A stretch of 64,000 bases of DNA from Spirochaetota bacterium (GTDB lineage: Bacteria > Spirochaetota > UBA4802 > UBA5550). The notes beneath the pieces were generated by a model, which saw only the letters and a program-made list of their open reading frames with translations, was not told the DNA's origin and searched no databases. The stretch lies in contig CAXXHB010000003.1 of the NCBI GenBank assembly GCA_963664815.2, forward strand, positions 384,001 through 448,000. The letters run 5' to 3'. The position numbers and the translations under genes were made by a program. Positions within the stretch are counted from its first letter, which is position 1; each line of letters begins with the position of its first letter. Below are positions 6,944 through 44,930 of this stretch, in pieces.

Positions 6944-7005
6944 GTAATTCTACGTTTATTTTAATTAATTGCAGCTCTTTTATGTAATCCGGAGAGGAAG
7001 AAAAA

Positions 7006-8289: not shown

Positions 8290-8484
8290 ATTTCAAATTA
8301 GAGAGAGCTGCACTAAGAACTGTCGTACATGATTTTAATTTGAAATTTAAAGATGAAATGTTGAGAATTTAATGAGTAAGGAATTAAATAGAGGTTTGTT
8401 CATTAAGATATGCAGCTTTCTTTACTAAATAGTAAGATGTTAAGGCAGACTCATTAGAATGATTTTAATCAGGGTGGTTTATTA

Positions 8485-9048
8485 ATGACTAATGAAGGAT
8501 TGAAACACAGAAGAGCGAAAATCGAGAAATCAAAGGATATTCTTTTAATTACTGTCCCTTCAATGAAGAAAATTTCATTCATTATATTTCTGGTTGCATC
8601 TTCATGTGTCTGGATATTGGGAGAAAAGGTTGTTGTTGCATTAATTCTAAAGATGGAGGTGCTTCAGGGATTTAATATTATTTTTATGCTCTGGTTTATA
8701 GTATGGACTATAATGGGGTTCTATCTGTTTCTGAAACTGCTATGGGTGATAGCGGGAAGGGAGATAGTTACCATATTGCCAGGGACTTTGAAAATCGAAA
8801 AAGCATATATTATCGGGATTCTCAGAAGCAGAGAGTACCTGCTGGAAGGGGTTAAAGATATTCAGATTGTACCAAATGCATCATTACGACACCGAAGAGG
8901 AGTTGTGTACAATACATTTTTCAAGGGGTATATTAAATTTAATTATGGTAAAAAAACTATTGCATTTATGAGCAGTGTGGATGAGGAAGAAGCCGGATAT
9001 ATTCTTGAACAGATCAAACAATATATTTATAACAGTAATGCTGTCTGA
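8485..9048 (+). CDS. Hypothetical membrane protein (2 TM plus soluble C-terminal domain)
   Basis: 187-aa ORF with two hydrophobic helices. Confidence 0.65.
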   Translation: MTNEGLKHRRAKIEKSKDILLITVPSMKKISFIIFLVASSCVWILGEKVVVALILKMEVLQGFNIIFMLWFIVWTIMGFYLFLKLLWVIAGREIVTILPGTLKIEKAYIIGILRSREYLLEGVKDIQIVPNASLRHRRGVVYNTFFKGYIKFNYGKKTIAFMSSVDEEEAGYILEQIKQYIYNSNAV

Positions 9049-9244
9049 TCTGCAGATTTACTGAACGCCATGATTAAATTATATTCTTTTTTCAGCCAGT
9101 AAGCCAGCATTATTAATACCCTGAACATGAATTTATTTAGTATAATAATTATTTTTTAGAGATTATTATACTAAAACCTGGACTTTTACAGAATAATTAT
9201 AATTTTATATGACGTTCAAGTATGAGAAATCTGACAGATCGATG

Positions 9245-9279
9245 TGTCAAAAGCCTGACATATTGTCAGGTTCCTGACA
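9245..9279. promoter_or_regulatory. Tandem palindromic enhancer boxes TGTCA-N6-TGACA (putative activator UAS)
   Basis: TGTCAaaagccTGACA (9245-9260) and TGTCAggttccTGACA (9264-9279), plus an extra TGACA half-site at 9232-9236. Confidence 0.65.
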
Positions 9280-9845
9280 CTTTGCTGATTTGTTTACGCT
9301 GTAAAATCCGAGAAATAGACATATACTATCTATATTCCTCAATTTCAGATTAACGTAAATTTTTGTTAATAAAAAAGATTTCAACATATTAATTGGACGG
9401 TCTGTATTTAATATATTTTTTTATTTTATTCTGGAAGATTAAAATCTTCTTTCATTAGTAGCTGTGTACACTACTTCTGATTCGTAATTACAGTTTTTAT
9501 TAAAAAAATAAAATAATTCTTTCATTAATCAAGGCTCTTTATTGTTGCCATTATTATTGAATGGCTGCTCTGCATTCTCTATTAGTTTCTTTTTGAGAAG
9601 TATTACCTGTTGCGAGTGTAATACATGCTCTCGAATTATATCCAGTACTTACTGATCATTTTTAAATGCTCAGATTATCATCTTCACTTTATGCATATCA
9701 TCCTTTCCTTTTATTAAAGCTTAATCGGCTCTTCTTCTTTCTATAAAGAAAATCTGTTTCTATAAAATAAAAGTCATGATTAACTTAACATGCATGTTGG
9801 GTAGTGACATTAAAATTATTCAGGTGCTGCAAATATTTTGAGGAT

Positions 9846-9860
9846 TGGCATGGAATCTGC
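9846..9860 (+). promoter_or_regulatory. Sigma-54 (-24/-12) promoter of the CstA-family transporter
   Basis: TGGCATGGAATCTGC: GG-N10-GC spacing, about 47 bp upstream of the GTG start. Confidence 0.75.
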
Positions 9861-9907
9861 GAATTATAATTACAGTACTACAAATAATTAAATTCTAAAA
9901 AGGAGAG

Positions 9908-11572
9908 GTGCAATATATGGTACTTACTACTTCGACCCTGACAATTATCGGGTTGGCAATCTGGACTTTTGGATTTTTAATCATCAGCGGATACCTGCAG
10001 AAAACTTATCTCAAATTTAAGCCAGGCAGGAAAGTTCCGGCAGTTGAATTCCGTGATGACGTGGATTTTTATCCAGCTAATCCGGTAACTCTGTTTGGAG
10101 ATCACTGGGCTTCAATTGCCGGTGGAGCTCCTTTAGCCGGAGGAGCAACCGGTGCTATGTGGGGTTTTCTGCCCGCATTCCTTTACATCACCGTAGGTAA
10201 CATATTTCTGGGATCACCCCATGACTATGCTACAATGCATCTATCCATGCGCAAAAAAGGTATGACTATAGGGCTCCTTATCAGGGAACTTATAAGTGAA
10301 AGAGCCGGTAAGATGGGTGTTTTTCTCGGATGGTGCAGTATTGCTGCGTTTATGGCTGTTTTTTTAACAGCGCTTGCCAAGCTTTTCGTGGCTACTCCTG
10401 AAATGACACTTCCTACATTTGCGTTCACAGGCTGCGGAGTTATGATGGGTTTTCTGATTTATAAGTTCGGCTGGTCAGTAACAAGAGCGACAGCTATTGG
10501 TATAGTTATAGTTGCAATTTGTATTGTTCTGGGTATGTATCACCCGATAAGTTTACCGTTTTATGTCTGGTTTGCTATTTTCACTATTTACCCGGTTGTT
10601 TCAGCTTCTATTCCTGCCTGGATGCTGGTTGAACCGAGAAACTTTCTTAATTTCTGTTTTATGTGCGTAGGTGCGACAGCACTGTTAATCGGCTGTATCG
10701 TTGGTAATATTCCAATTCAGCTGCCGGCAGTTATAGCCACCACAAAACAGGGTCCACTATGGCCTATGCTGTTTTTAACGATCTCATGCGGAGCATTAAC
10801 CGGAATGCACTCTTTCTGGACAACGGGATATACTTCAAGACGTGTTCCTGATGAGAAATATGTACGTATTATCGGTTACGGCGGCGAAGTGCTTGAAGGT
10901 CTCACTGCATTTGTAGCCCTGGCTTCTGCAGCTGTTCTTCCGTTAGCTGTATACACTGAATATATAGCCAAGGGCTGGATATTTATACTTCAGAACGGCT
11001 ATGCACAGATTGCAGGAAGTGTATTTACTTTTATTACCTATCACTCCTGGGCTGTGTGGGGAGGATTGCTTGGAAGTATTTTTATGATCACAACGCTGGA
11101 ATCCGGCGCACGAAATATGAGAATTTTTATGCTGGAACTCTGGGGAATGTTTGTTAAACCTGTATCTCCTAATAATGGGGCGGCTAAATGGGGAGCTGCA
11201 TCTCTTTCACTTGTTGCCTGTGCTGCATTATCTCTTTCCGGAGGATGGTTCTATATCTGGATTCTATTCCCCGCGCTATCAAGTCTGCTTGCGTTGATGT
11301 CATTCATGACAGTTATCATATGGCTTAAGCTGGTTGGAAGACCTACAGGGTATTTCTGGTTTGCATTGCTAATCACAACTTTTGTCATAGCATTACCGGG
11401 AGCAGGTTACCTCAGCTATACGTATATAGTTAAAGGTATGTATCATCTTGCCTGGATACCGGCTCTTGCGATTGTACTGACAGCATTTTTCTATGTTGAC
11501 TTCTTCAAGAAAAAGAATTCAATAACTGCTCAGGAAATTGAAATAGCTTCAAAAGTTGAAGAAGCTGTTTAA
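9908..11572 (+). CDS. CstA-family (carbon starvation/BtsT-like) transporter
   Basis: PAVEFRDDVDFYP, LFGDHWASIAGGAPLAG, GSPHDY, PLWPMLFLTISCGALTGMH, many TM helices; AGGAGAG RBS. Confidence 0.88.
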   Translation: MQYMVLTTSTLTIIGLAIWTFGFLIISGYLQKTYLKFKPGRKVPAVEFRDDVDFYPANPVTLFGDHWASIAGGAPLAGGATGAMWGFLPAFLYITVGNIFLGSPHDYATMHLSMRKKGMTIGLLIRELISERAGKMGVFLGWCSIAAFMAVFLTALAKLFVATPEMTLPTFAFTGCGVMMGFLIYKFGWSVTRATAIGIVIVAICIVLGMYHPISLPFYVWFAIFTIYPVVSASIPAWMLVEPRNFLNFCFMCVGATALLIGCIVGNIPIQLPAVIATTKQGPLWPMLFLTISCGALTGMHSFWTTGYTSRRVPDEKYVRIIGYGGEVLEGLTAFVALASAAVLPLAVYTEYIAKGWIFILQNGYAQIAGSVFTFITYHSWAVWGGLLGSIFMITTLESGARNMRIFMLELWGMFVKPVSPNNGAAKWGAASLSLVACAALSLSGGWFYIWILFPALSSLLALMSFMTVIIWLKLVGRPTGYFWFALLITTFVIALPGAGYLSYTYIVKGMYHLAWIPALAIVLTAFFYVDFFKKKNSITAQEIEIASKVEEAV

Positions 11573-11652
11573 GGGTATCACAGTCTCAGGTTGAAAATAT
11601 AGATCCCTCAGAAATAAGAGGAATTAAAAATGGTTTTAATTTGAAAATATAG

Positions 11653-11690
11653 CGATAACCGGGTGAAGTCTTCTTTACCCGGTTTTATCG
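11653..11690 (+). terminator. Intrinsic terminator after the CstA gene
   Basis: AACCGGGTGAAG-tctt-CTTTACCCGGTT hairpin followed by T run. Confidence 0.65.
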
Positions 11691-11925
11691 TTAAGATAAA
11701 TCACAAGAGGGACTGTTGTGAGATGCTTATAAAATATTGATAGACAGAACAGTAAATATTTATTAAATTATAATTCAGTAAGATTTGCTGTAATATTATA
11801 TGAAATAATGCTTAATGGGATGATTCGTTTCAATTAAATCCCGTATATTTTTTCAGGATATCATAAGCATTAGCGTTATCTGTGTGAAGGTTTGAAGCAG
11901 TAAAAAAATCAGGAGGTGTTAAATA

Positions 11926-12192
11926 ATGCAAAATGGTGAATTAACACAGGTTCAAAAACTTTATCTTGAAGCTTTAAAAGACGGTCCAAAAGAATCAGGT
12001 CAACTAACGACTATTGTGCGAAATAGGCTTACTCAGATTAAAAGCGGGAATAATCCTGTAGGAGCGACAGGGAGAGCTCAGGCAGTGCTGGATGAGCTTG
12101 AAAAAGACGGTTATATTGTTGTAATATCGAAGAAGCTTTTCGGTGGTAAAAAATATGACATTACAGATAAAGGTAAAGGAATTATTGGTTAG
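11926..12192 (+). CDS. Small winged-helix (PadR-like) protein
   Basis: LEALKDGP, LDELEKDGYI, KKYDITDKG wHTH pattern; AGGAGGT RBS. Confidence 0.7.
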   Translation: MQNGELTQVQKLYLEALKDGPKESGQLTTIVRNRLTQIKSGNNPVGATGRAQAVLDELEKDGYIVVISKKLFGGKKYDITDKGKGIIG

Positions 12193-12198
12193 GACAGC

Positions 12199-13167
12199 AT
12201 GACAAAAATGCATCAGGCGAAATTAGAGATCCTTAATAACCGCTTGGATCGTCTGGAAAAAGACGTTCAGAGAATACAGGCTTATAATGGCAAGGGGATG
12301 AAGGCTGATAATTCGCTCAATGATGTATACTCCAGTTTTGTAAACATGGGAGAAATCCTTAAGCAGACTCAGGCAGAGAATAACAACAAAACAGATGAAT
12401 TAAATGATATATGTGTAAGGTATAAAGATCTGTTTGCTAAATTTGAGTTCGTTGCAGATGAATTCAATTCGCAGAACAAAGGTATGGTTCTCGTAAGTAA
12501 AAGAGCCATACCTGAATTTTTTTATAATATAACCATGCGCTATCGCAGGTTCTGGAATATATATGAGAAGATTGCAACCTTCTTTGGAGTTGGAATTATC
12601 GCTTTCACTTTAATCATATTGACATACTTTTCTGCTTATGGTCACTTCCCGTTGTTACAACAAAACAGTGGAGGAACACAGGCGATAAAAGCTTTTGGGT
12701 TTATAGCTGGTCTTGTTATAGGGCTATGTGTGCATGAATTTGCTCATGGAGTTGTTCTTGCTAATAATGGCATTAAAATCAAACAGGTAGGTGTGATGGC
12801 AGGTTCTATGGTCGGAGGATTTATAGAGGCTGAAGAGACTACTTTTTTCCAGGCTGACCGGAGAGTACATTTAAGATTTAATGCATCGAGTATCGGAACC
12901 AATGCTTTGCTGGCTGTATTATTGGGATTAATTGCGATGTTAACTTCTTCCGGACTTTTATTATACCTGTCATTAGGAAATCTGTTTTTTGGCATAATAA
13001 ATTCATTTCCGATTCTCCCTCTGGACGGGGGATGGGTTTATGAAGATTTAATTAATATTTACCTGACAAATAAAATCATCAGAAAGATACTACTATATGC
13101 AAGATTTGCCTTTGCCATACTTTGGCTAATCCTTTTTACTTTTTCTGTTCTCTCGTATCATTCATAG
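12199..13167 (+). CDS. Site-2 protease (M50) family intramembrane metalloprotease with N-terminal coiled coil
   Basis: HEFAH zinc motif and NSFPILPLDGG motif; TM helices. Confidence 0.85.
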   Translation: MTKMHQAKLEILNNRLDRLEKDVQRIQAYNGKGMKADNSLNDVYSSFVNMGEILKQTQAENNNKTDELNDICVRYKDLFAKFEFVADEFNSQNKGMVLVSKRAIPEFFYNITMRYRRFWNIYEKIATFFGVGIIAFTLIILTYFSAYGHFPLLQQNSGGTQAIKAFGFIAGLVIGLCVHEFAHGVVLANNGIKIKQVGVMAGSMVGGFIEAEETTFFQADRRVHLRFNASSIGTNALLAVLLGLIAMLTSSGLLLYLSLGNLFFGIINSFPILPLDGGWVYEDLINIYLTNKIIRKILLYARFAFAILWLILFTFSVLSYHS

Positions 13168-13524
13168 CATGTTAACCAATATCAGCGGACGTTGAGTAAT
13201 TAGCCGTTTTGCTGTTAAGTGTTTTGTTAGGTGCTGCATCAGTTTCAGATGTTTGGGTTATAGTTTTGCATATATTATAACTTATCCATGTATGTAGTAA
13301 CATTCAGCGGGGAGAGAACAGCTGAATCGGTCTGAGTATGAAATTTACAGATGAAACCTGATAAGAATCTGCTCAAAGTATCCTTTATGAACCTGAAATA
13401 TTCATCGTACACCGGACTTCACAAAACATTTACATTTAAAAAATGAGACCCATGACTGTGAAATTATAAATCAGTTTATAGTCATGAGTCATCAGATCAA
13501 TTTTTTTCTACCGGTAGATCCATG

Positions 13525-13728
13525 TTATTTAAAATTGAAACCGGATGCATTATCAACTTCCTTTTTCATATCATCTTCTTTATCTGTTTTAGTTGCTGAA
13601 GCATCAGTTTTCTTTTCTTCAGCCGCAACCGGAGAAGACTTATCTGCTTTTTTGCAGCTTGTGAAAGCAAAACCTGACGTTAATACCAAAGTAAGTACAC
13701 ACATTACAGCGAGAATCTCTTTCTTCAT
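13525..13728 (-). CDS. Small lipoprotein (67 aa)
   Basis: MKK + hydrophobic stretch + FTSC lipobox, charged low-complexity tail; AGGAG RBS. Confidence 0.7.
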   Translation of the reverse strand: MKKEILAVMCVLTLVLTSGFAFTSCKKADKSSPVAAEEKKTDASATKTDKEDDMKKEVDNASGFNFK

Positions 13729-14048
13729 AAAAATACAACTCCTGTTATAATAATTTTTTAACCCTTAATATATCATGGGTTAAAAAAAGCAAAAATATTT
13801 TTTAAATTTTTTTATTTTGAATAAAGTACAGCGTGAGTATCGTTGATAAGGTGAAGCGATGATTGTTGCGAAGTAAAATTTTTATGTTGAGTAATCTGCC
13901 ATTCAACATCCATCTGTTGGTATACTTTTTCGGATTACGGATTTCTTTCTTATATGTTTTAACTTCTTCGGGGCAACTAAGATGAAACCACTACGTATTC
14001 AATTCGGCATTCCGGAGTTGAAAGTCCTACCGGATGATGTGAAAAAAA

Positions 14049-14064
14049 TGTCAACTTTCTGACG
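14049..14064. promoter_or_regulatory. UAS box TGTCA-N6-TGACG upstream of the hdr operon
   Basis: TGTCAactttcTGACG about 160 bp upstream of the -24 element; further TGACA at 14105-14109. Confidence 0.6.
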
Positions 14065-14221
14065 CCACTATTCAAAAAACGGGCACATCTTAATTCTGAA
14101 AATCTGACAATTGAAAAATATTATTAATAAAACACAGAATGAATAAGAATATTAATAATAAAACCTGTTTAAACTGGAAGAATTTAGCTTAAAGAGGCGC
14201 TTTATAATGGTTTTTATAGCT

Positions 14222-14237
14222 TGGCATGATTATTGCA
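14222..14237 (+). promoter_or_regulatory. Sigma-54 (-24/-12) promoter of the hdr/CoA-transferase operon
   Basis: TGGCATGATTATTGCA, near-consensus with exact GG-N10-GC spacing. Confidence 0.85.
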
Positions 14238-14289
14238 TATTTATAATAAATAATAATACAAAAATATTTATTTTTTTTGGAGGTATAGT

Positions 14290-14883
14290 TTGCCACGAGA
14301 ATCGGAAAAAGATTGGGACGATCAGCTATTCCAGAAAGTTGACAGATATAAACTGGCCCAGAATCTTGAAAGCTGTCTTCAATGCGGGAAATGCACGGGT
14401 AACTGCCCGGTTGCTGCGCTTACTACTTCTTATAATCCAAGGGCAATTATCAATGATATACTATCAGGGAATATATCCAGACTGCTGGACAGCGAAGAAA
14501 TCTGGAGATGTTTCTGGTGTGCAAATTGTTACAGGGTATGTCCGGTTGATATCAGTTATCCAATGCTTATGATGCAGCTCAGATATTTGGCACTTGAAAA
14601 TGGATACGGATTAAAATATGTCGTCAATATAAATAAATTTACATACAAAGCTCTTGATGAAGGTCTGAGTTTTGTACCCGGTGCGAAAGGTATAGAACGT
14701 ATAAAAAAACTTCGCACTGCGATAAACGTTTCTCCATGGCCTGAAGTATCAGAAAGGGCTAAAAAGGAATACAGGGAAATATTTGAACAAACCGGAGCCG
14801 TGGCGTGGATGAAAAAGATTGAATCTCAGGAGGAGAAAGGACTGAGAATGAGCTTCGCAGAAGGGAGAATTACAAATGAGTGA
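14290..14883 (+). CDS. hdrC: Heterodisulfide reductase subunit C-like (HdrC1)
   Basis: CLQCGKCTGNCP and IWRCFWCANCYRVCP; TTG start after GGAGG. Confidence 0.88.
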   Translation: MPRESEKDWDDQLFQKVDRYKLAQNLESCLQCGKCTGNCPVAALTTSYNPRAIINDILSGNISRLLDSEEIWRCFWCANCYRVCPVDISYPMLMMQLRYLALENGYGLKYVVNINKFTYKALDEGLSFVPGAKGIERIKKLRTAINVSPWPEVSERAKKEYREIFEQTGAVAWMKKIESQEEKGLRMSFAEGRITNE

Positions 14884-15835
14884 TAATATTCAAGTCAGGG
14901 TAATCAGACCGGAAGAACGGATACCGGAGATACCGGAAAAAATATTTCTTTTCCGCAGCTGTACCGGAAGCATGGAATACCCTGGAACAGAGCTTGCTGT
15001 CAAAACAGTACTGTCAAAAATCGGTGTTGAGGTTATAATGGATCCGGACCAGACATGCTGTTCGGGATATATACTAACATGTTCCGGGTATACACCTGAA
15101 GCTTCACTGGCGGTAACTGCAAGGAACCTCGCTATGGTTGAACAGAAGTATAATCTGGATACATATGCCTTTTGTAATGGATGCTTCGGATATATGCGCG
15201 AGTTGTCTCACATAGTAAATCATGCACCCGGCATGAAAGAGCAGGTGAATGAGCTTATAGGAAAATGGGGATATAATTATAAAGGTAAAACTACAATTTA
15301 TCATGTGCAGGAATTGTATTATCTATTGATAGATAGAATCAAATCTCTTGTTGTACGGCCTCTTAACGGTTTGCGGGTGGCATCACATTACGGCTGCCAT
15401 TACCTTGCTCAGCAGTATGGAATTCTTGATGATGGTGATTTGCCGACATTTCATGAAAAGATATATGAAGTTCTTGGAGCAACACCGGTTTTTTACAAAG
15501 AGAGAAGAATGTGTTGTGGTTATGCAGTAGGACGGGGATTTACTCACAAAGAAAGTATGGTGCAGCCTCATCTGTCAAGGAAATTTGACAGCGCCAAAGC
15601 GGAAGGAGTACAGCTTATGACTACTGTCTGTCCGGGATGTAACACAGGGCTTGACAGGGAACAGTCTAATCTTGCGGCAAAGGGATTCGGCCCTTATAAT
15701 ATTCCTGTTATAGATCTGTCTCAACTGATCGGGCTCGCTATTGGTTTGCCGATAAAAAGCCTCGGATTTCAGGCAAACAGCGTATCTATGGATGGTGTAT
15801 TAAATTTTTTGGGATTAAATAAGGAGATCGATTGA
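14876..15835 (+). CDS. hdrB: Heterodisulfide reductase subunit B-like (HdrB1)
   Basis: Two CCG domains: FRSC..EYPG..DQTCCSG..CNGC and HYGCH..MCCGY..CPGC. Confidence 0.88.
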   Translation: MSDNIQVRVIRPEERIPEIPEKIFLFRSCTGSMEYPGTELAVKTVLSKIGVEVIMDPDQTCCSGYILTCSGYTPEASLAVTARNLAMVEQKYNLDTYAFCNGCFGYMRELSHIVNHAPGMKEQVNELIGKWGYNYKGKTTIYHVQELYYLLIDRIKSLVVRPLNGLRVASHYGCHYLAQQYGILDDGDLPTFHEKIYEVLGATPVFYKERRMCCGYAVGRGFTHKESMVQPHLSRKFDSAKAEGVQLMTTVCPGCNTGLDREQSNLAAKGFGPYNIPVIDLSQLIGLAIGLPIKSLGFQANSVSMDGVLNFLGLNKEID

Positions 15836-16878
15836 TGAAAGATAAAACTGTTCTTGTAATAGGCGGCGGAATAGCCGGGATGGAAGCCGCATTGCAGATT
15901 GGTAATTCCGGTTATAAAGTTATGCTTGTGGAAAAAGAAAACTCACTCGGGGGAACTCTCCTCAACCTGTACAGCAGTTTCCCTCGGTGGGAGGATCCTG
16001 CCAGACTTGTGCAGATGAAATATGATGATCTTAAAAATTGCGGGAATGTTCAGATAAAAACCGGAACAGTACCTGTTGCAAGCACAAAGCAGGGAAAGGG
16101 ATACATTGTAGAACTCAAGGGTACTGACGGGCAGAATGATAAAGTTCAGGCTGATGCAGTTGTAATTGCAACGGGTTTCGGGCTTTTTGATGTTTCTGCA
16201 TATGGCGAATATGGATATGGCGAATATGATAATGTTCTCAATACACTCGAGTTTGAAGCGAAACTGAAGGAGTGGATTGAAGATAAATCAGGAATGATAA
16301 AAAAACCCAAGACAATTGCTTTTATCAAATGTGTCGGCTCGCGGGACAGGTCAAAAGGGTATCCTTACTGTTCTAAAATTTGCTGCATGATAACTGCAAA
16401 ACAGGCTGGACTTGTTAAAGATATTCTCCCGGACGCAAAATGTTTCGTTTTTTACATGGATTACCGTGCAGCGGGAAAGGAATACGAGGAATTTGTGCGT
16501 ACTGTTATTGAAGAAAAGCATGTTCGTTATGTCAGAGGCAGACCAGCCAAGATTCTGCCTGAAAACGGCAGAATGACTTTAAGGGTTGAAGATACTCTTA
16601 TGGGTGTACCTGTTGAGGTAAGGGCTGATATGGTTGTACTGGCTGCTGCAATAGAACCGAGTGCGGGGACAAAGCAAATGGCGGAGATTTTCAGACTGGA
16701 GTCAGATCATTACGGATTTTTGGAGACGGTTTACGGAAGTCCTTCAAGAGCATCTGATATGATTTTTGTCGCGGGTTCGTGTACATATGCGGTAGAGACA
16801 AAAGGGGCCCTGCAGCAGGGAGCATCAGCAGCAGCTGAAGTATTGGCCATGTTCGGCCGTGAAAATACAGGAGAATGA
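15835..16878 (+). CDS. hdrA: Short HdrA-like flavoprotein (no ferredoxin insert or C-terminal ferredoxin domains)
   Basis: VIGGGIAGMEAA, CVGSRD, YCSKICCM..KQA, FYMDYRAAGK, GRPAKI; about 347 aa. Confidence 0.88.
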   Translation: MKDKTVLVIGGGIAGMEAALQIGNSGYKVMLVEKENSLGGTLLNLYSSFPRWEDPARLVQMKYDDLKNCGNVQIKTGTVPVASTKQGKGYIVELKGTDGQNDKVQADAVVIATGFGLFDVSAYGEYGYGEYDNVLNTLEFEAKLKEWIEDKSGMIKKPKTIAFIKCVGSRDRSKGYPYCSKICCMITAKQAGLVKDILPDAKCFVFYMDYRAAGKEYEEFVRTVIEEKHVRYVRGRPAKILPENGRMTLRVEDTLMGVPVEVRADMVVLAAAIEPSAGTKQMAEIFRLESDHYGFLETVYGSPSRASDMIFVAGSCTYAVETKGALQQGASAAAEVLAMFGRENTGE

Positions 16879-16879
16879 T

Positions 16880-17476
16880 ATGTCAGAAACAGTCCGGCAG
16901 ACATCAGAAGTTTTTTATCATTTAGTAAAACTGGATGAAACAGACAATAGACTGGCTGATGAAATAAAACAGAGCTGCGGTGTTGATATTGAGATGTGTC
17001 TGGAATGCGGTAAATGCACTGGCGGCTGTTCAAATACTCATATATTCGATTTTACACCACGGAAAATTATACAGCTTATAAAACTCGGACAGGAGGATAA
17101 ACTGTTGCATATGGATTCTCTGTGGACATGTGTTTCATGTCAACTCTGCTTTGACCGCTGCCCTTCAGGGATCAGCGTAGCCAGAATTATGGATTACCTT
17201 CGTGAAAAAAGTCATAAAAAAAATATTAAACCCTCACGTGAAAACGTTATGCTGTTCCATGAAATAGTATTGAGGTCAGTTCAGCATTCAGGAAGGCTTC
17301 ATGAACTTGGTTCCGTTATGCAGTTCAATATAAAAAGCGGAATGTTATTCAAGGATACGGAGCTTGGCATTAAAATGTTTTTTAAAGGCAAATTGAGTCT
17401 TTTTCATTTTAAAATCAAAGGCGTAAAACAGGTAAGACGCTTATTTAAATATTTTTATGCCGGGGGTGAAAAATAA
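16880..17476 (+). CDS. hdrC: Heterodisulfide reductase subunit C-like (HdrC2)
   Basis: CLECGKCTGGCS and LWTCVSCQLCFDRCP; ATG 16880 after AGGAG. Confidence 0.88.
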   Translation: MSETVRQTSEVFYHLVKLDETDNRLADEIKQSCGVDIEMCLECGKCTGGCSNTHIFDFTPRKIIQLIKLGQEDKLLHMDSLWTCVSCQLCFDRCPSGISVARIMDYLREKSHKKNIKPSRENVMLFHEIVLRSVQHSGRLHELGSVMQFNIKSGMLFKDTELGIKMFFKGKLSLFHFKIKGVKQVRRLFKYFYAGGEK

Positions 17477-18351
17477 TGATAAATGTAGCTTATTATCCCG
17501 GTTGTTCTTTAAAAGGAATGGCCAGCGAATATGATAAATCATCCCGCATTGTGTGCAGCCACCTGGGAATAAAACTTCATGAAATTAAAAACTGGAATTG
17601 CTGCGGGGCCACATCGGCTCACAGTTTAAATCATAACCTTGATATAAGTCTTTCAGCCCGTAATCTTGATATTGTAAAAAGCATGAACCTTGACCATGTG
17701 ACAAGTCCATGTCCTGGATGTTTTAGCCGCCTTAAAGGTTCATCTTTTGAAATGAGGAATAACACGGCAGTCAGAAATACAGTCGAGAAATTCCTGGGGA
17801 GATCCGCACCTGTTGAGCCCGAGGTCAGCAGTATGGTTCAGCTTATTGTTGAGAATAACAGTATGAAAGAGATTGCAAGTCATGTGGTAAAACCTCTTAA
17901 CGGGCTGAAAGCAGCCGTGTACTACGGGTGCCTTCTTACAAGGCCAAAAAAGATTGTGGGATTTGATGATCCGGAAAAGCCGATGTCTCTGGATTTTATA
18001 ATGCAGTCTGTTGGAGCTGAGACCGTCACCTGGGGCTGTAAAGCCGAATGCTGCGGGGGCGGATACTCTGTTTCGGAAACAGATATCGTTATGGATCTTT
18101 CATCCAGAATTTTGGAGTCAGCCCATCAGTCAGGTGCTGAGGCTATTGTTGTTGCATGTCCGCTTTGTCAGGCTAACCTGGATACAAGGCAGAAAGCTAT
18201 CAGTGAAAAGCAGGGGATTAAGTATAATTTACCTGTTATCTACTTTACTCAGCTTATGGGACTTGCTTACGGAGATAAGTCTTCGTCACTGGGGTTCAGG
18301 CGTCTGTTTATCAGTCCATTCAAACTTTTAAAATCAAAGGGGCTGATATAA
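17476..18351 (+). CDS. hdrB: Heterodisulfide reductase subunit B (HdrB2)
   Basis: YYPGCS, WNCCGA, PCPGC, YYGCL, ECCGG, ACPLCQANLD, PVIYFTQLMGLA. Confidence 0.9.
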   Translation: MINVAYYPGCSLKGMASEYDKSSRIVCSHLGIKLHEIKNWNCCGATSAHSLNHNLDISLSARNLDIVKSMNLDHVTSPCPGCFSRLKGSSFEMRNNTAVRNTVEKFLGRSAPVEPEVSSMVQLIVENNSMKEIASHVVKPLNGLKAAVYYGCLLTRPKKIVGFDDPEKPMSLDFIMQSVGAETVTWGCKAECCGGGYSVSETDIVMDLSSRILESAHQSGAEAIVVACPLCQANLDTRQKAISEKQGIKYNLPVIYFTQLMGLAYGDKSSSLGFRRLFISPFKLLKSKGLI

Positions 18352-18527
18352 AAATAAAAAATTAAGGAGGTAATAAAAAGACTGCCTGAAAGCTGGGGCT
18401 TTTCAGACAGCTTTTATAAAAAACACAAAGATCATTTTTCACACTTAATTGTTATTTTCAGGAGTTAGAATTAAGAGTTACTCAATGACTTAAAGGCATT
18501 TTAATATTAATCAAGGAGTGAAATCAA

Positions 18528-19514
18528 GTGAAAAACAAGCTTATTTCAATACAAGAGGCAGTAAAAAAATATACATGGGACGGTATGACTTTTGCCCATG
18601 GCGGTGCTTTACCTGTAGGTTCCGACTGTATAGCATTCTTTCGTGAAATGGTTCGCAATGGAGTAAAGGATATAAACTGCATTTCAAACTGTAATACACA
18701 GGGATCAAATCTGCTTGCCGGTGCCGGTCTCATGAAACGTATGGAGGTCGGGTTTTCCGGTCTTGAGGTATATGGTTTTGCCAACGGTCTTAAAAGGGTT
18801 GTGGAAAGCGGCAAGACAATTCTTGAAGACTATTCCAATGGAGCAATTCCACTCAGACTCATGGGTGGTGCTTTAGGCTGGCCATTTGTTCCCACATTTA
18901 TATGCACAGGTTCCGGTCAGCAATCCTGTTCTGCTGATGAACCGGATGTTTTTCCAAATAAAAAAAAGATACCCGAGATTAAAGATCCTTTTACCGGAGT
19001 TACAATGGGAGCTATGAAAAGTCTCACGCCTGATCTTGCAGTGATCCATGTAACTATGTCTGATATATACGGGAATGCGATTATGCTTGGTACGGAATGG
19101 AGTCGTTTTGAACTTTCCCGTGCATCTAAAAAGGTTATACTGCAGACAGATTATATTGTTGATACTGACTGTATAAAACAGTTTCCGAACCTTGTGAGGA
19201 TCCCTGATCTTGTTGTTGACGGAGTTGTCTATTGGCCCATGGGTGTATGGCCGGCATGTTCAACAGGTGTTTATGACAGTGATGAAGAACATATGGGGCT
19301 GATGAATAAACTGCTTAAAACAGAGGATGGCACAAAAGAATACATAGATAAATATGTCAGGAGTTACACCACATATGAGGAATACCTGGAAGTTATAGGC
19401 AAGGATAAGATCAAAACTCTCAAAGATACAGCAACCGCATTTTTAATGGATCCTTATAAAAAATGGATAGTAAGCGATTCTGAGATCAAGTCTTCGATGG
19501 GGGGAGGTAAATAA
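18528..19514 (+). CDS. CoA-transferase subunit A (glutaconate CoA-transferase GctA-like), copy 1
   Basis: KLISIQEAV, EDYSNG..LRLMGGALGWPF, DPFTG, PDLAVIHV..SD.YGN. Confidence 0.85.
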   Translation: MKNKLISIQEAVKKYTWDGMTFAHGGALPVGSDCIAFFREMVRNGVKDINCISNCNTQGSNLLAGAGLMKRMEVGFSGLEVYGFANGLKRVVESGKTILEDYSNGAIPLRLMGGALGWPFVPTFICTGSGQQSCSADEPDVFPNKKKIPEIKDPFTGVTMGAMKSLTPDLAVIHVTMSDIYGNAIMLGTEWSRFELSRASKKVILQTDYIVDTDCIKQFPNLVRIPDLVVDGVVYWPMGVWPACSTGVYDSDEEHMGLMNKLLKTEDGTKEYIDKYVRSYTTYEEYLEVIGKDKIKTLKDTATAFLMDPYKKWIVSDSEIKSSMGGGK

Positions 19515-20308
19515 TGGAATATTCTAAAAATGAAGGGATGGCGATTGCCACAGGGAGAGAATTTAATGATGGTGAGCTTGCAATATTCGGCGTGGGTCTG
19601 AGTATGCTTGCAGGATTTTTCGCACAGAAGAATCATGCTCCGAATCTTATAGCATTCACTGAGGGTGGAGTATACGGGTCTACTCCTGTCGGAGGACTGC
19701 CGTGGGGTATTGAGGATAACCGCATATCCGCGAATGCAACAAGCTTTACAAATGCCATTGATGCTCTTGGTATGCTCGTGGCATCGGGCAGGGTCGACAA
19801 TGCTGTAATAGGGGCTGCACAGATTGATAAATTCGGAAACGTTAATACTACAGGTATATGGGACGAAGGAACACAGCCGTGGAAGGTTGGAAGATATACT
19901 CTTCCAAAAGTAAGACTTAACGGAAGCGGCGGCGCTAACGAAATCGCTGTTGGTGCCAAAAAATATTTAATAATGGCAGCTCATGAGAAAAAAAGATTTG
20001 CCGACAGAGTGGATTATATTTCCTCACCCGGCTACATTGATGGAGGAAATGCACGCCAGAGATACGGTTTTCCTGGTGGCGGCCCTTCAGCTATCATCAC
20101 AAATCTTGGTATACTGAGGCCTGATCCGGTAACAAAGGAATTTTATCTGGATGCGTATTTCAGCCATTCGTCTGTTGAAGAAATAATAGAGAATACAGGC
20201 TGGGTGTTAAAGATATCTCCGAATGTCAAGATGGTTCCTGAACCAACTGAGAAAGAACTTGAGAATCTGAGAGCGGTTGATGCGACAGGATCGCTACGGA
20301 AAAAATAA
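19514..20308 (+). CDS. CoA-transferase subunit B (GctB-like), copy 1, catalytic Glu retained
   Basis: FGVGL, FTEGG (Glu50), GAAQIDKFGNVN, RLNGSGGAN, VDYISSPG, ENTGW. Confidence 0.87.
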   Translation: MEYSKNEGMAIATGREFNDGELAIFGVGLSMLAGFFAQKNHAPNLIAFTEGGVYGSTPVGGLPWGIEDNRISANATSFTNAIDALGMLVASGRVDNAVIGAAQIDKFGNVNTTGIWDEGTQPWKVGRYTLPKVRLNGSGGANEIAVGAKKYLIMAAHEKKRFADRVDYISSPGYIDGGNARQRYGFPGGGPSAIITNLGILRPDPVTKEFYLDAYFSHSSVEEIIENTGWVLKISPNVKMVPEPTEKELENLRAVDATGSLRKK

Positions 20309-20316
20309 TATATTGG

Positions 20317-20360
20317 CAGGCAGCATAATAACCATGTGAAACATGATTATTTTCTGCCTG
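20317..20360 (+). terminator. Stem-loop between the two CoA-transferase pairs (terminator or mRNA stabiliser)
   Basis: CAGGCAG...ATAACCATGT-gaa-ACATGATTAT...CTGCCTG followed by TTT. Confidence 0.45.
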
Positions 20361-20459
20361 TTTAAAATAAGGTAAAGAATTTAATTCAGTATTTATATTC
20401 AGTCACTTGGAACCAGTAGTAGAAAGAGTAAAAATAAATTTAATCAAAGGAGGTTGAAA

Positions 20460-21275
20460 ATGCACGAAAAGTTGATGTCATTATCAAAGGCTGCCGATCT
20501 CATCAGAAATGATATGCTGCTCAGCTTCGGTGGTAATGGGATGCATCGTAATCCTGTTGCTTTTGCATTAGCCCTTACAAAGAGACCTTTAAAAAGTCTC
20601 AGGATGTGCGGGGCTGCACCTGGAATTGCGACTGATATCATGATGCCACAGTCTTGTGAAGCATATTTCGGTTTTTTTGGTCTGGAAAATGAGGCCGGCC
20701 TGGCACCAGGTATGAGAAAAGCGATGGAGGGGGCAAATCCTACAGTCAAGGCATATGAGGGTTCCTGAACGGCGATGATTGCTGCTCTCCGTGCGGGAGC
20801 CTATGGAATACCCTTTATGCCAGTCGGAGGCATGTGGGGAAGCGACTTAGTTGCATTACGCCCAGATTTTTATCAAGTCATGAAAAGCCCGTTTGACGGG
20901 AAAGAAGTAGTATGTGTTAAAGCTCTTGTGCCTGATTATGCCGTAATTCATGTACAGGAAGCGGATATCTACGGGAATGCCCGTATACTCGGCCCGAGTT
21001 ATCAGGATGCGCTTCTTGCAAGAGCAGCAAAAAAAGTAATAATAACAGCAGAGCGAATAGTGGGTACATACCGGATGCAGGAAGAACCTAAGCTTACGGC
21101 AATTCCTCATATGCTGGTTGAAGCTGTTGTTGAAGTACCCGGCGGTGCTAAACCCGGAATTTGTTATCCTGATTATCTCACTGCTGACTGGGATGCTCAT
21201 AAGGCTTATCAGAAAGCTGTGAAGGAAGGTACGGTATCGGACTGGGTGGCTAAACTTTTGGAAGGGAGGTCATAA
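20460..21275 (+). CDS. CoA-transferase subunit A-like protein, copy 2; putative selenoprotein (in-frame UGA at codon 103)
   Basis: ORFs 20454-20768 and 20775-21275 share a frame and are separated only by TGA-ACG-GCG; joined 271-aa product (..AYEGS-U-TAMIAALRAGAYGIPF..) is collinear with copy 1; AAGGAGGT RBS before ATG 20460; SECIS-like hairpin downstream. Confidence 0.8.
20784..20800 (+). promoter_or_regulatory. Putative bacterial SECIS element
   Basis: GCTC(T)CC-GTGC-GGGAGC: 6-bp stem with bulged U and a loop starting GU, loop G 22 nt after the UGA. Confidence 0.7.
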
Positions 21276-21276
21276 A

Positions 21277-22014
21277 ATGGAATATGGAAAACCTGAAATG
21301 ATGGCAGTAGCCCTCATACGTGAAATACAGGAAAATGACGTTGTGTTCCATGGTCTTGCTTCATCTACTCCAATGGTGGCCATGAAAGCGGCCAAGGCAC
21401 TTGGCAAAGATTATACATATGTTACTCTCAGTGACGGTCTGGACCATGACTGGAAAAGACCCCCATATTTCGCATCCACACTTTCTGAAAATACTTATAC
21501 TGGTTCCGTGGCGACTTTCGGACTGGATGAAATATTCGATCTTTATATGTCCGGTAAAGGAGATATAGCTTTCCTTTCATGCCTTCAGATGGATAAAACA
21601 GGAAGGATCGCGATGTCATACGTTGGCGGAGAATATGATCATCCGAAACTCAGGGGGCCGGGAGGAGCAGGCAGCGCCTCGCTTACGCCTATGACTCCCA
21701 GAACAATAATCTGGAAAACTCAGCATGACAAGAGAACTTTTATCGAGCACGTAGATTTTGCAACAACATCACCGGCTGTTGATAAAATGTTCACTCTGGT
21801 TACGCCTCTTTGTATTTTCAGGAAGCCGGTTGGAGAAAAACTTCTTAAACTGGATTGTATTTTCCCGTACACAACACTGGAAGAAGTTAAGGAAAATACC
21901 GGATGGGTAATTGATGAAACAAAAGTACCTGTAATGGATCCCCCTACAGAGGCTGAATTGTCAGCAATCAAGAGAGTGGATCCTAACAATATTCTTGCTT
22001 ACGAGTTTAAATAG
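21277..22014 (+). CDS. CoA-transferase subunit B-like protein, copy 2, lacking the canonical catalytic Glu
   Basis: VFHGLAS, QMDKTGRI, KLRGPGGAGS, HDKRTFIEHVDF, ENTGW; 'TLSDG' where copy 1 has 'TEGG'. Confidence 0.83.
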   Translation: MEYGKPEMMAVALIREIQENDVVFHGLASSTPMVAMKAAKALGKDYTYVTLSDGLDHDWKRPPYFASTLSENTYTGSVATFGLDEIFDLYMSGKGDIAFLSCLQMDKTGRIAMSYVGGEYDHPKLRGPGGAGSASLTPMTPRTIIWKTQHDKRTFIEHVDFATTSPAVDKMFTLVTPLCIFRKPVGEKLLKLDCIFPYTTLEEVKENTGWVIDETKVPVMDPPTEAELSAIKRVDPNNILAYEFK

Positions 22015-22036
22015 TTTAAAAAGTATTGATTTATAA

Positions 22037-22081
22037 TGCCAAACAGGAACAGAGTAGCTGGTGCTTCGTTCCTGTTTGGCA
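22037..22081 (+). terminator. Inverted repeat after the CoA-transferase genes
   Basis: TGCCAAACAGGAAC ... GTTCCTGTTTGGCA, 14-bp stem. Confidence 0.55.
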
Positions 22082-22143
22082 AAAAATATTGCTGTAATTT
22101 ATATTTTATTGTTTAGCAGGATTTAAAATTTTAATGTGGTGGA

Positions 22144-23805
22144 ATGGTGATTTTTATGAGTAAAAAAGTACTTATAGTCGGAGGTGTTGCAGGTGGAGCC
22201 AGCACTGCTGCGAGACTCAGGAGACTTGACGAAAATGCTGAGATTATTATGTTTGAACGTGGTGAATTTATTTCATTTGCCAACTGCGGGCTTCCATATT
22301 ATGTAGGGGGTGCTATTGTAAACAGGAAAAGCCTTTTCGTACAGACTCCTCAGTCAATGAAAAAACGATTTAACCTGGACGTTCGTATACACAGCGAAGT
22401 CGTAAAAATTTTTCCTTCTGAAAAGAAGGTTGAAGTCCGCAGCATTCAGAAAGGGGAGAATTACTTTGAGACCTATGATTACCTTGTACTTTCTCCGGGA
22501 GCGCAGCCCGTTTTACCGGACATAAAAGGACTGAATCTTCCAAATGTATTCAGTGTCCGCAATGTTCCTGACAGTGATGCAATAAAGCAGTTTATCGATG
22601 CTCATAAGCCTGCAACAGCTGTGATAATAGGCGGAGGTTTTATAGGTATGGAAATGGCAGATGTGCTTCATCAGTGCGGAGTAAAGACAACTGTTGTTGA
22701 AGCGGCAGACCGGATTATGAATCTCTGGCTTGACGGGGAAATGGCAACAACAGTACAGCAGTATATAAATAAGAAAGGAATAGAGCTTGTTTTAAATGAT
22801 AAAGTTGCGGTTCTCGAGGGTTCTTCTGGAGTTGAGAGGGCAGTTCTTGAAAGCGGCAGAGAAATTTCTGCGGAGATTGTAATTCTCGGTACAGGAGTAA
22901 AACCTGAGGTATGGCTTGCAGAAGATGCCGGACTTGTCATTGGCTCCACGGGCGGGATACACGTGGATGAATATCTGCGGACCTCAAATGAATTTATTTA
23001 TGCAGTTGGCGATGCCATTGAAGTAAAAAATATGATTACGGATAAATATGAACTGATGTTTCTTGCAGGTCCTGCCAACAGGCAGGGGAGGCTTGCGGCA
23101 GATAATATTGCAGGAAGACCATCTAAATATTCCGGTTCACAGGGAACAGCAATAATAAAAATAATAGATATGACTGTGGCTGTAACCGGTGCGAACGGGA
23201 AAAGTCTCAGTAATTCAGGAATACCTTTTCTCGCGTGTCATATACATCCCGCTTCTCATGCGGCATACTATCCCGGCGGAACGCAGATGTCGATCAAACT
23301 TTTTTTCACCCCTGATGAAGGAAAAATCCTCGGGGCACAGATTGTGGGATTTGACGGAGTTGACAAGCGCATTGATGTTTTTGCAACTGCTGTCAGGGCT
23401 GGAATGACAGTGTTTGATCTCACTGAGCTTGAGCTGGCCTATGCACCCCCATTTTCATCGGCAAAGGATCCAGTGAATATGGCCGGGTATGTGGCCTCAA
23501 ACATATTGCTTAAGGATATTGAAGTGGTTTACTGGAAAGATGTTCCGGCACTTGTTTCAGGAGGTGCATTTCTCCTTGACGTTCGCATGCCGTCAGAAGT
23601 AGAGGCTGGGGCGGTTAATGGTTCGGTTAATATACCTGTTGATGATCTGAGAAACCGCATTGAAGAGATACCTAAAGACAAGGTGATCCTGGTTTACTGC
23701 CAGGTGGGTCTGCGTAGCTATATCTCTAATCGTATATTAAAGCAGAAAGGATTTATTGTAAAGAATATCAGCGGAGGATACAAGTCCTTCCAATCACAAA
23801 AGTAA
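22144..23805 (+). CDS. cdr: CoA-disulfide/persulfide reductase with C-terminal rhodanese domain
   Basis: GGVAGGASTAARLRR, redox Cys SFANCGLPY, GGGFIG, LAYAPPFS, rhodanese YCQVGLRS. Confidence 0.9.
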   Translation: MVIFMSKKVLIVGGVAGGASTAARLRRLDENAEIIMFERGEFISFANCGLPYYVGGAIVNRKSLFVQTPQSMKKRFNLDVRIHSEVVKIFPSEKKVEVRSIQKGENYFETYDYLVLSPGAQPVLPDIKGLNLPNVFSVRNVPDSDAIKQFIDAHKPATAVIIGGGFIGMEMADVLHQCGVKTTVVEAADRIMNLWLDGEMATTVQQYINKKGIELVLNDKVAVLEGSSGVERAVLESGREISAEIVILGTGVKPEVWLAEDAGLVIGSTGGIHVDEYLRTSNEFIYAVGDAIEVKNMITDKYELMFLAGPANRQGRLAADNIAGRPSKYSGSQGTAIIKIIDMTVAVTGANGKSLSNSGIPFLACHIHPASHAAYYPGGTQMSIKLFFTPDEGKILGAQIVGFDGVDKRIDVFATAVRAGMTVFDLTELELAYAPPFSSAKDPVNMAGYVASNILLKDIEVVYWKDVPALVSGGAFLLDVRMPSEVEAGAVNGSVNIPVDDLRNRIEEIPKDKVILVYCQVGLRSYISNRILKQKGFIVKNISGGYKSFQSQK

Positions 23806-23918
23806 ATGTTCTTTATTGATGGTCTGAATTTAAGAAAAGCTAATAAGTTCATATGTAACTGATTTTAGTAACATATGATAATTTTATTTTATGATAAAAC
23901 AACTGGAGAAAAGATTTA

Positions 23919-33256: not shown

Positions 33257-33269
33257 GGTTTTAGCCTCC

Positions 33270-44858: not shown

Positions 44859-44930
44859 AGCGGGCGATGGGGCTCGAACCCACGACGTCCAGCTTGGGAA
44901 GCTGACATTCTACCACTGAATTACACCCGC
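44859..44930 (-). tRNA. tRNA-Gly (anticodon CCC)
   Basis: Minus strand GCGGGTGTAATTCAGTGGTAGAATGTCAGCTTCCCAAGCTGGACGTCGTGGGTTCGAGCCCCATCGCCCGCT folds as a cloverleaf; CCA not encoded. Confidence 0.95.

Follow-up and report, generated by a model that had tools for sequence, protein, structure and literature searches.

A 64,000-nucleotide stretch of the genome of a Spirochaetota bacterium (assembly GCA_963664815.2, contig CAXXHB010000003.1, here C3, positions 384001–448000), referred to below as the window, contains five genes for a heterodisulfide reductase (Hdr)-like complex in the order hdrC1-B1-A-C2-B2 (14290–18351). These are followed by two pairs of genes for proteins of the CoA-transferase fold, and one of these genes, alpha2, is interrupted by an in-frame TGA. 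The comparisons below indicate that this TGA is read as selenocysteine (Sec), and the invariant Cys/Sec that it marks within a CoA-transferase fold probably defines a new selenoprotein family. The cluster as a whole looks like an undescribed anaerobic pathway, and not the sulfur-oxidising system that its gene order resembles. Coordinates are those of the window unless a contig or another locus is named, and features of the window are on the + strand unless stated otherwise.

The five Hdr genes lie at the positions, in the order and on the + strand as given in an earlier note on this DNA. Adjacent genes share 1–20 nt and, because of these overlaps, the set fits a single translationally coupled unit. 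HdrC1 (14290–14883, 197 aa) has two CxxCxxCxxxCP motifs and HdrC2 (16859–17476, 205 aa) two CxxCxxCxxxC motifs, i.e. two [4Fe–4S]-binding motifs in each. HdrB1 (14876–15835, 319 aa) and HdrB2 (17476–18351, 291 aa) both contain two complete CCG domains, and HdrA (15832–16878, 348 aa) has motifs for FAD and one [4Fe–4S] cluster, without ferredoxin domains. Pfam finds a Fer4 dicluster domain in HdrC1 and HdrC2, two CCG stretches per HdrB and Pyr_redox_2 in HdrA, and the cofactor motifs of all five subunits are intact. Their product is a soluble Hdr-like complex. The best NCBIfam matches are Hdr subunit models (SdhE for HdrB2), each scoring far below its equivalog cut-off: 227 bits against 1100 for HdrA, 198 against 345 for HdrB1, 83 against 270 for HdrC1 and 67 against 160 for HdrC2. 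HdrB2 scores 172 bits with the HdrB model (cut-off 345) and 184 bits with SdhE (cut-off 500), a methylmenaquinol : fumarate reductase model; its likeness to the two is about equal.

Ten CCG cysteines (C29, 61, 62, 100, 103, 174, 213, 214, 252 and 255 in HdrB1 numbering) are invariant in an alignment of four HdrB1 and four HdrB2 sequences, and each HdrB retains all ten that are needed for two noncubane clusters. The two distinct HdrB sites of the earlier note are thus borne out. Its description of HdrB1 as atypical and HdrB2 as canonical should, if anything, be reversed. In full-length alignment HdrB1 scores 169 bits with methanogen HdrB and HdrB2 145 bits, and the NCBIfam preference of HdrB2 is for SdhE. 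The HdrB1 segment LFRSC..EYPG aligns with YFLGC..RYPG of methanogen HdrB, and HdrB1 is closer to methanogen HdrB than HdrB2 is; only a conserved N-terminal extension of 22 aa sets it apart.

The short HdrA keeps the FAD motif and the cluster motif and has no CxxCxxCxxxC motif, as previously described. Its GxGxxG motif and the cluster cysteines C167, C180, C184 and C185 are invariant in 22 family members. Only two stretches match methanogen HdrA (9SFI_A), residues 4–77 with 143–216 and 104–334 with 318–558, so the N-terminal, inserted ferredoxin and C-terminal ferredoxin domains are missing. The protein is not a fragment with its other half elsewhere, a possibility raised in the earlier note, but complete: its best 120 relatives are 312–377 aa long and residues 5–342 are collinear, end to end, with residues 2–340 of the 349-aa structure 6TJR, an HdrA of the sulfur-oxidising Hdr-like (sHdr) system. 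The family is large, with 3860 proteins at E<=1e-10 among 8000 scored. Scores are 433–778 bits within the family, 180–198 bits with methanogen HdrA and 152 bits with sHdrA 6TJR. Because the ferredoxin domains are absent, classical ferredoxin-coupled bifurcation is unlikely, and HdrA is probably non-bifurcating.

Three further observations concern HdrA. An additional cysteine, Cys317 (AGSCTYAVE), is invariant in the same 22 short-HdrA members, and methanogen HdrA has Ala at the aligned residue. Besides this gene, the genome has HdrA-like sequence only at C3:1452573–1456685 (loci L002–L004), more than 1 Mb from the window. There a single open frame of 1497 aa holds several HdrA-like stretches, with an MvhD/FlpD gene directly after it (C3:1457078–1457446, L012) and a further one 8 kb upstream, the MvhD (PF02662) copies thus lying at C3:1.444 and 1.457 Mb. 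One Syntrophomonadaceae-type genome that carries the alpha2 gene, G002, encodes a second short-HdrA copy (G002:C52:9046–10080, 59% identity) with one in-frame TGA in the match, which may be a Sec-containing variant or an end effect.

Type I sHdr is defined as shdrC1B1AHC2B2, constantly associated with LbpA and with TusA, DsrE and rhodanese sulfur transferases (PMC11094781, PMC6067878). It is named from Hyphomicrobium denitrificans, Aquifex aeolicus, Acidithiobacillus and Sulfolobales. The likeness of the window genes to this system is real, in that two different HdrC/HdrB pairs surround an HdrA of about 350 aa with FAD and one [4Fe–4S] cluster. The sHdr complex is predicted to assemble as AA'B1C1B2C2 (PMC11094781), and by analogy the complex encoded in the window is likely to assemble in the same way.

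The window locus differs from type I sHdr in having no genes for sHdrH, LbpA, lipoate maturation, TusA, DsrE or Rhd. With the last base of hdrA at 16878 and an hdrC2 ORF that begins at 16859 (its next ATG is at 16880), the two genes abut or overlap and leave no space for the sHdrH gene that would lie between them, and the same direct junction is found in five related loci (L014, L015, L016, L020 and L021). Among the window open reading frames (ORFs) scanned, none showed a hydrogenase, MvhD, Flx or GcvH/LbpA domain, in agreement with the earlier note. Family searches of the whole genome for lbpA/gcvH, tusA, dsrE and mvhD, which that note had suggested, did find copies, all at least 0.87 Mb from the window. 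No LbpA is encoded in the window, and in the genome the GcvH family (PF01597) is represented only at C3:1.93 and 2.07 Mb; no TusA lies near the Hdr genes (copies at C3:1.32 and 1.58 Mb), nor does any DsrE (a copy at C2:0.64 Mb and sub-cut-off matches beside the TusA genes). The single rhodanese at the locus is a domain fused to a CoA-disulfide-reductase (CoADR)-like protein. Because sHdrH is missing, LbpA, TusA and DsrE are absent within 0.87 Mb and HdrA and HdrB1 score higher with methanogen subunits than with sHdrA, the complex is judged on this evidence not to be a member of the sulfur-oxidising sHdr system. The sHdr-like layout described in the earlier note is real in the C1-B1-A-C2-B2 order and the short HdrA, but it is not the layout of sHdr itself. 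Further differences are that clusters of the window type occur in strict-anaerobe lineages and that their constant partners are enzymes of the CoA-transferase fold, one of them a predicted selenoprotein.

Methanogenic HdrABC (MvhAGD–HdrABC; 5ODC, 8RVU, 9SFI) shares with the window proteins the ten HdrB cysteines, the HdrC dicluster motifs and a thioredoxin-reductase-like HdrA core with its cluster. Methanogen HdrA, however, has the N-terminal and both ferredoxin domains (about 650 aa), of which the window HdrA has none. The window locus also lacks MvhD and a hydrogenase, its subunits miss the equivalog cut-offs widely, and it encodes two non-identical HdrBC modules.

The Sec codon of alpha2 was overlooked in the earlier note, whose coordinates end before this gene. 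Two ORFs (20454–20768 and 20775–21275) share a frame with a single TGA (20766–20768) between them, and readthrough gives a CoA-transferase-fold subunit of 273 aa (20454–21275) with the sequence YEGS-U-TAMI, i.e. the motif E102-G-S-U105. The TGA is found at the identical codon in the Syntrophomonas locus L014 and in three more genomes (G001–G003), with the protein conserved on both sides. Exactly one in-frame TGA is present in 27 of 29 alpha2 matches, which come from the 28 ortholog-bearing genomes among 107 of one family. In a Desulfovibrio metagenome-assembled genome (MAG; locus L021) the ortholog has Cys at the Sec position, as do all 19 full-length homologs aligned (40–70% identity), among which E102 and C/U105 are invariant. 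The 19 were picked from 41 full-length entries within the best 120 database homologs; 79 of these 120 are C-terminal pieces of 150–174 aa, as expected because gene callers stop at TGA. In more distant homologs, such as those named Pelotomaculum propionicicum and Clostridium aceticum, the motif reads EHAC.

A hairpin resembling a selenocysteine insertion sequence (SECIS), GCUCUC-CGUGC-GGGAGC (20784–20800; 6-bp stem, 5-nt loop), starts 16 nt past the UGA. All five Sec-type loci have it in identical or wobble-compensated form, and in them its synonymous sites are frozen and the flanking sites variable. The same genome encodes tRNA-SeC (anticodon tca, C2:23618–23706) and SelB (C2:15627–17426), which with 323.6 bits passes the TIGR00475 cut-off of 242. 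The conserved TGA, the Cys homologs, the frozen hairpin and the presence of tRNA-SeC and SelB together lead us to assign the in-frame TGA of alpha2 to Sec. In the ESM Atlas, a Cys homolog of alpha2 retrieved only generic 'CoA transferase subunit A' clusters.

The first of the two pairs consists of alpha1 (18528–19514), of the glutaconate CoA-transferase type, with a Pfam CoA_trans domain and Asn where alpha2 has Sec, and beta1 (19514–20308), which matches GctB (1POI_B) at 143.9 bits (E 5.8e-41). The Glu of GctB IVESG aligns with the Glu of beta1 AFTEGG, and the catalytic Glu is therefore kept. The catalytic residue of glutaconate CoA-transferase is given as Glu54-beta (PMC5380842). Pair 1 looks like a true glutaconate-type CoA-transferase. 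In the second pair beta2 (21277–22014), the partner of alpha2, has Asp53 in place of the catalytic Glu; the position is Asp in three of four orthologs (window, L014, L015) and Gly in the fourth (L021). Loss of this Glu (Gly57-beta) is a published argument against a transferase role for IpdAB (PMC5380842). Because beta2 has likewise lost it, pair 2 is probably not a transferase. The coupling to CoA-transferases put forward in the earlier note thus concerns a real link, recurring in three phylum-level lineages and among the 107 genomes, in which only pair 1 is likely to be a transferase.

The best match of beta2 in the Protein Data Bank is AibB (5MZW_D, 67 bits), and alpha2 matches GctA (82 bits), IpdA (77 bits) and AibA (66 bits). 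IpdAB, a COCHEA-CoA hydrolase of steroid catabolism, and AibAB, a 3-methylglutaconyl-CoA decarboxylase, have the family-I CoA-transferase fold without being transferases, and the beta Glu is lost in them as in beta2. E102 of alpha2, which is invariant and stands three residues before U105, falls in the alignment no more than one residue from an IpdA position that changes from Glu to Ala between 6CO6 and 6COJ, presumably that of the catalytic Glu of IpdAB. In these alignments, however, IpdA, AibA and GctA have no counterpart of the invariant Cys/Sec three residues past E102, and the genomic partner of alpha2/beta2, unlike those of IpdAB and AibAB, is an Hdr-like complex. Cys179 of beta2 (PLCIFR) is present in all four orthologs, with Gly at this position in beta1, and is a candidate resolving cysteine.

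The last gene of the operon (22144–23805) encodes a CoADR-like flavoprotein with Pyr_redox_2, Pyr_redox_dim and a C-terminal rhodanese domain. It scores 500 bits with TIGR03385, below the cut-off of 578.8, and has both the CoADR cysteine (SFANCG) and the rhodanese cysteine (YCQVGLR). The domain order and both cysteines suggest kinship with characterised rhodanese-fused CoADR enzymes of the NADH-dependent persulfide reductase or CoA persulfide reductase type; the window protein differs in falling below the equivalog cut-off and in being embedded in an Hdr/CoA-transferase operon.

The association of the Hdr and CoA-transferase-like genes is maintained in three phylum-level lineages. The best short-HdrA loci (54–65% identity) belong to Syntrophomonas/Syntrophomonadaceae, Syntrophales, Solirubrobacterales and Desulfovibrio MAGs. 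In the Syntrophomonas/Syntrophomonadaceae loci L014, L015 and L016 the order is a CBS–PAS sigma-54 activator, HdrC1B1AC2B2, alpha1/beta1, a major facilitator superfamily transporter and alpha2/beta2, although L016 ends at the transporter and the alpha2 gene of its genome is on another contig. In L021 the activator, the five Hdr genes and alpha1/beta1 precede CstA and M50-like genes, alpha2/beta2 and CoADR–rhodanese. The window has the activator, a gene for a double-cubane-cluster protein (DCCP), an ORF of no recognised family, CstA, an 88-aa ORF, an M50-like gene, the five Hdr genes, alpha1/beta1, alpha2/beta2 and CoADR–rhodanese, the last of which is present in two of the three cluster types. 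In L020, from a Syntrophales MAG, HdrB1-A-C2-B2 are followed by unrelated genes.

Three other loci may be mentioned here. In L015, from a Syntrophomonas MAG, a 718-aa membrane protein (12831–14987, − strand) with NarI-like, dicluster and CCG regions, an HdrD/DsrMK-like fusion, stands tail to tail with beta2. In Desulfosporosinus nitroreducens (L022, 7889–11616) HdrC is followed by a one-CCG protein (236 aa), an HdrA of 347 aa (44% identical) and another one-CCG protein (238 aa); genes for a Crp-family regulator, a protein of the TauE/SafE sulfite-exporter family and DUF1847 lie upstream on the opposite strand. L024 was considered as a true sHdr cluster for comparison and dropped, as its HdrA is 579 aa long and lies in a high-GC region with many spurious ORFs.

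Among the 107 Syntrophomonadaceae-type genomes, short HdrA occurs in 32 and alpha2 in 28; 26 have both, two alpha2 only, six HdrA only and 73 neither. Where both occur they are on one contig in 17 of 26 genomes, 1.7–10.5 kb apart. Of 400 other genomes from the phylum to which the window belongs, three of them from the same genus, none yielded either gene, in searches of which one scored five candidates per genome. At the DNA level window positions 7000–23900 have no match in the three same-genus genomes, and beta1 shares 92% identity with its Syntrophomonas MAG ortholog. From these three results it seems probable that the operon came by horizontal transfer, with a Syntrophomonadaceae-like pool as its donor.

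Upstream of the cluster a PrdR-like sigma-54 enhancer-binding activator (5057–6943; Pfam CBS pair, PAS, AAA+ and HTH_8) matches NF041552 (TF_PrdR) at 583.5 bits over residues 24–613, short of the cut-off of 795. With other sigma-54 activator models the match is confined to its AAA+/HTH part, at no more than 330 bits. Activators of like architecture flank the cluster in L014, L015, L016 and L021. A −24/−12-like element, TGGCATGATTATTGCA (14222–14237; TGGCAT-N5-TTGCA, one mismatch to TGGCAC-N5-TTGCW), is intergenic and lies 53 nt ahead of the hdrC1 start; a GGAGG stands before that start. No strong terminator was found on the + strand between 14290 and 23805.

PrdR controls the selenoenzyme D-proline reductase, and the Stickland selenoenzymes need a dedicated reductant for their Se–S intermediate. 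The window resembles the Stickland reductases (PrdAB under PrdR; GrdAB) in combining a predicted selenoenzyme with a PrdR-like sigma-54 activator. It differs from them in that alpha2/beta2 are unrelated in sequence to PrdA, PrdB, GrdA and GrdB, the regulator falls short of the PrdR cut-off, the proposed substrate is a CoA thioester, and an Hdr-like complex takes the place of thioredoxin or PrdC as candidate reductant.

Taken together, these features are tentatively interpreted, with confidence a little short of even, as a horizontally acquired catabolic operon, probably sigma-54-dependent, that would provide thiol/selenol redox cycling for an acyl-CoA-converting selenoenzyme. An imported carboxylate would be converted to its CoA thioester by alpha1/beta1. 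The acyl-CoA would then be converted by alpha2/beta2, with Sec/Cys105 as nucleophile or redox residue and Glu102 assisting; a non-transferase chemistry is proposed here, parallel to that which IpdAB and AibAB perform on CoA esters with the same fold. The Hdr complex would cycle the thiol/selenol–disulfide state, one HdrB site accepting an enzyme- or substrate-derived (seleno)sulfide. Via HdrC, the FAD of HdrA and the second HdrC, electrons would be exchanged with the other HdrB site and a second thiol couple there. The second couple might most simply be CoA with CoA-disulfide or CoA-persulfide, an obvious candidate because two of the three cluster types have CoADR–rhodanese as their final gene, and CoADR–rhodanese would join this couple to NAD(H).

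A more specific version of this proposal is possible, although we regard it as rather unlikely. The operon could encode a selenoenzyme of the IpdAB/AibAB fold whose catalytic Sec acts on a CoA thioester, its selenenyl-sulfide or thiol state being restored by an Hdr complex of its own with four noncubane clusters. Under a PrdR-like regulator, such a system might be for CoA esters what the Stickland reductases are for glycine and proline. It might catalyse reductive C–S, C–N or C–X cleavage, or a thiol-dependent conversion, outside known pathways.

Several points weigh against the proposed redox-cycling operon. Sec105 probably lies in the alpha/beta active site and may be out of reach of HdrB, and a small-molecule mediator must then be assumed. 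A quinone-linked role for HdrB2 is left open by its SdhE likeness. The genomes of L020 (Syntrophales) and L019 (Solirubrobacterales) have the Hdr unit and no alpha2 ortholog, as do six of the 32 HdrA-positive genomes in the family of 107; the complex is therefore not strictly tied to alpha2. Similarly, CoADR–rhodanese is missing from the Syntrophomonas loci examined, and so the proposed link to NAD(H) is not universal. The 107 genomes are related and mostly incomplete MAGs, so that their co-occurrence figures are descriptive and overstate independence. With regard to the nucleic acid signals, sigma-54-like sites occur in the window at chance level (24 found, 27.9 expected), the hairpin past the UGA shows no compensatory pair change and is argued from conservation, and in single-sequence folding the energy of the 60 nt past the UGA is ordinary compared with shuffles (z-scores 0.75 and 0.26). 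A complex prediction for alpha2, beta2 and HdrB1 of L021 gave a score of 0.00 (mark 0.34) and hence no verdict; it speaks neither for nor against the proposal.

The cluster could instead be a variant sHdr system that oxidises sulfane sulfur to sulfite. CoA persulfide and CoADR–rhodanese would then stand in for LbpA and dihydrolipoamide dehydrogenase, and CoA-bound sulfur would be dealt with by the CoA-transferase-like proteins. The C1-B1-A-C2-B2 order, the collinearity of the short HdrA with 6TJR, the rhodanese-fused CoADR homolog in the window operon and L021, and the TusA, DsrE and GcvH homologs elsewhere in the genome all speak for this view. The partners required by the published definition (PMC11094781, PMC6067878) are nevertheless absent, there being no sHdrH and no LbpA, TusA or DsrE within 0.87 Mb; HdrA leans towards methanogen HdrA (198 against 152 bits), the usual hosts are Syntrophomonadaceae-type anaerobes, and the Syntrophomonas clusters examined lack CoADR–rhodanese. 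The constant partners also argue against sulfur oxidation, for they comprise a true CoA-transferase, a transporter of the carboxylate type and a regulator of the amino-acid (PrdR-like) type, and such a variant seems improbable. An energy-metabolism Hdr, whether bifurcating or linked to DsrC or quinone, that is a mere neighbour of a CoA-transferase operon and passes electrons through an SdhE-like HdrC2B2 to menaquinone or a general acceptor, is improbable too. In its favour, the SdhE model is the best NCBIfam match of HdrB2, some genomes carry the Hdr unit and lack alpha2, and a membrane HdrD-like protein adjoins the cluster in L015. That match is, however, far below the 500-bit cut-off, HdrA has no ferredoxin domains, and the operon lacks a module for NAD(H), H2 or formate as well as a membrane subunit. 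The accessory distribution of the unit (none of 400 phylum genomes, about 30% of one family) is better suited to a substrate-specific pathway, and the unit co-occurs tightly with alpha2 and is situated close to it.

Decay of the cluster, with alpha2 a stop-broken pseudogene and the Hdr genes a non-functional remnant of a transferred island, hardly merits belief. Under translation table 11 an in-frame stop does split alpha2, and the region has no DNA-level counterpart in the same-genus genomes. The TGA stands, however, at the identical codon in 27 of 29 matches from another family, with the protein strongly conserved on either side; all 19 full-length homologs have Cys there, the genome has tRNA-SeC and SelB, and the metal-binding cysteines are intact in all five Hdr subunits. 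The pseudogene interpretation of the split alpha2 is contradicted by these conservation data and was rejected.

The genes between the activator and hdrC1 are less constant. The first (7006–8289) encodes a double-cubane-cluster anaerobic reductase (HGD-D; NF040772, 473.5 bits, cut-off 350), whose membership of the unit is uncertain; it was considered as a conserved member and set aside, as it is not beside the cluster in L014, L015, L016 or L021. No BcrAD/BadFG-type ATPase partner for it was seen in the window. A 187-aa ORF (8485–9048) after it belongs to no family. The CstA-family transporter (9908–11572; Pfam CstA, 272.6 bits), with a terminator-like hairpin 3' of its gene (11657–11684), has a counterpart inside the L021 cluster. 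A small protein of 88 aa (11926–12192), without a Pfam or NCBIfam match, is encoded directly upstream of an M50-like intramembrane metalloprotease (12199–13167; Pfam Peptidase_M50) that has the motif HEFAHG and, at its N-terminus, a coiled region; a clear homolog of the latter lies inside the L021 cluster (16333–17292). Downstream of the operon a CitMHS_2 transporter (23919–25433; Pfam, 579.8 bits) probably belongs to the native surroundings and not to the acquired unit, because its gene is the sole stretch of window positions 1–40000 with a long DNA match (75–79%) in the three same-genus genomes.

Elsewhere in the window, an 819-aa fusion protein (29489–31948, − strand) combines Fer4_20 (dihydropyrimidine-dehydrogenase type), Pyr_redox_2 and nitroreductase domains. 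Its gene is clustered with those for two thiolase-like proteins, two acyl-CoA dehydrogenases, an acetyl-CoA hydrolase/transferase and two short-chain dehydrogenases/reductases, and on the opposite strand within it there is a perfect sigma-54 −24/−12 match, TGGCACGGGCATTGCT (31803–31818). The acyl-CoA dehydrogenase ORFs (32120–33412 and 33270–34775, − strand) overlap by 143 nt, the GTG start of the downstream one probably having been called too early. The only RNA gene of the window, according to ARAGORN and Rfam, is tRNA-Gly (ccc) at 44859–44930 (− strand).

In the literature searched, which left subscription journals and supplementary files outside, hdrC1B1A and hdrC2B2 appear only for sulfur oxidisers or Methanosarcina; no earlier description of a Sec-containing CoA-transferase-type protein was found, nor anything relevant on a combination of Hdr, CoA-transferase and CoADR or sigma-54 genes. 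Two papers were set aside: the benzene 'Magic' cluster (PMC13101534) concerns a GlcDEF-like complex, and the Syntrophomonas wolfei proteome (PMC4324140) a different hdrABC locus.

Short-HdrA complexes with two different HdrBC modules have so far been characterised only as sulfur-oxidising sHdr. The same layout recurs in strict-anaerobe lineages beside other partners, and sHdr can therefore not be called in metagenomes from gene order alone. If the proposed association with a CoA-ester selenoenzyme is correct, it would provide the first physiological partner outside sulfur oxidation for complexes of the C1B1A–C2B2 type with a short HdrA. The substrates of HdrB are also open for sHdr, and CoA-based thiols with a soluble partner enzyme would offer a tractable route here. 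For the alpha2 family, the Sec/Cys pair together with a defined partner and a defined regulator is a testable handle. About one quarter of one family of syntrophic fatty-acid degraders (26 of 107 genomes) carries the cluster, and the pathway may therefore matter in anaerobic digesters and sediments.

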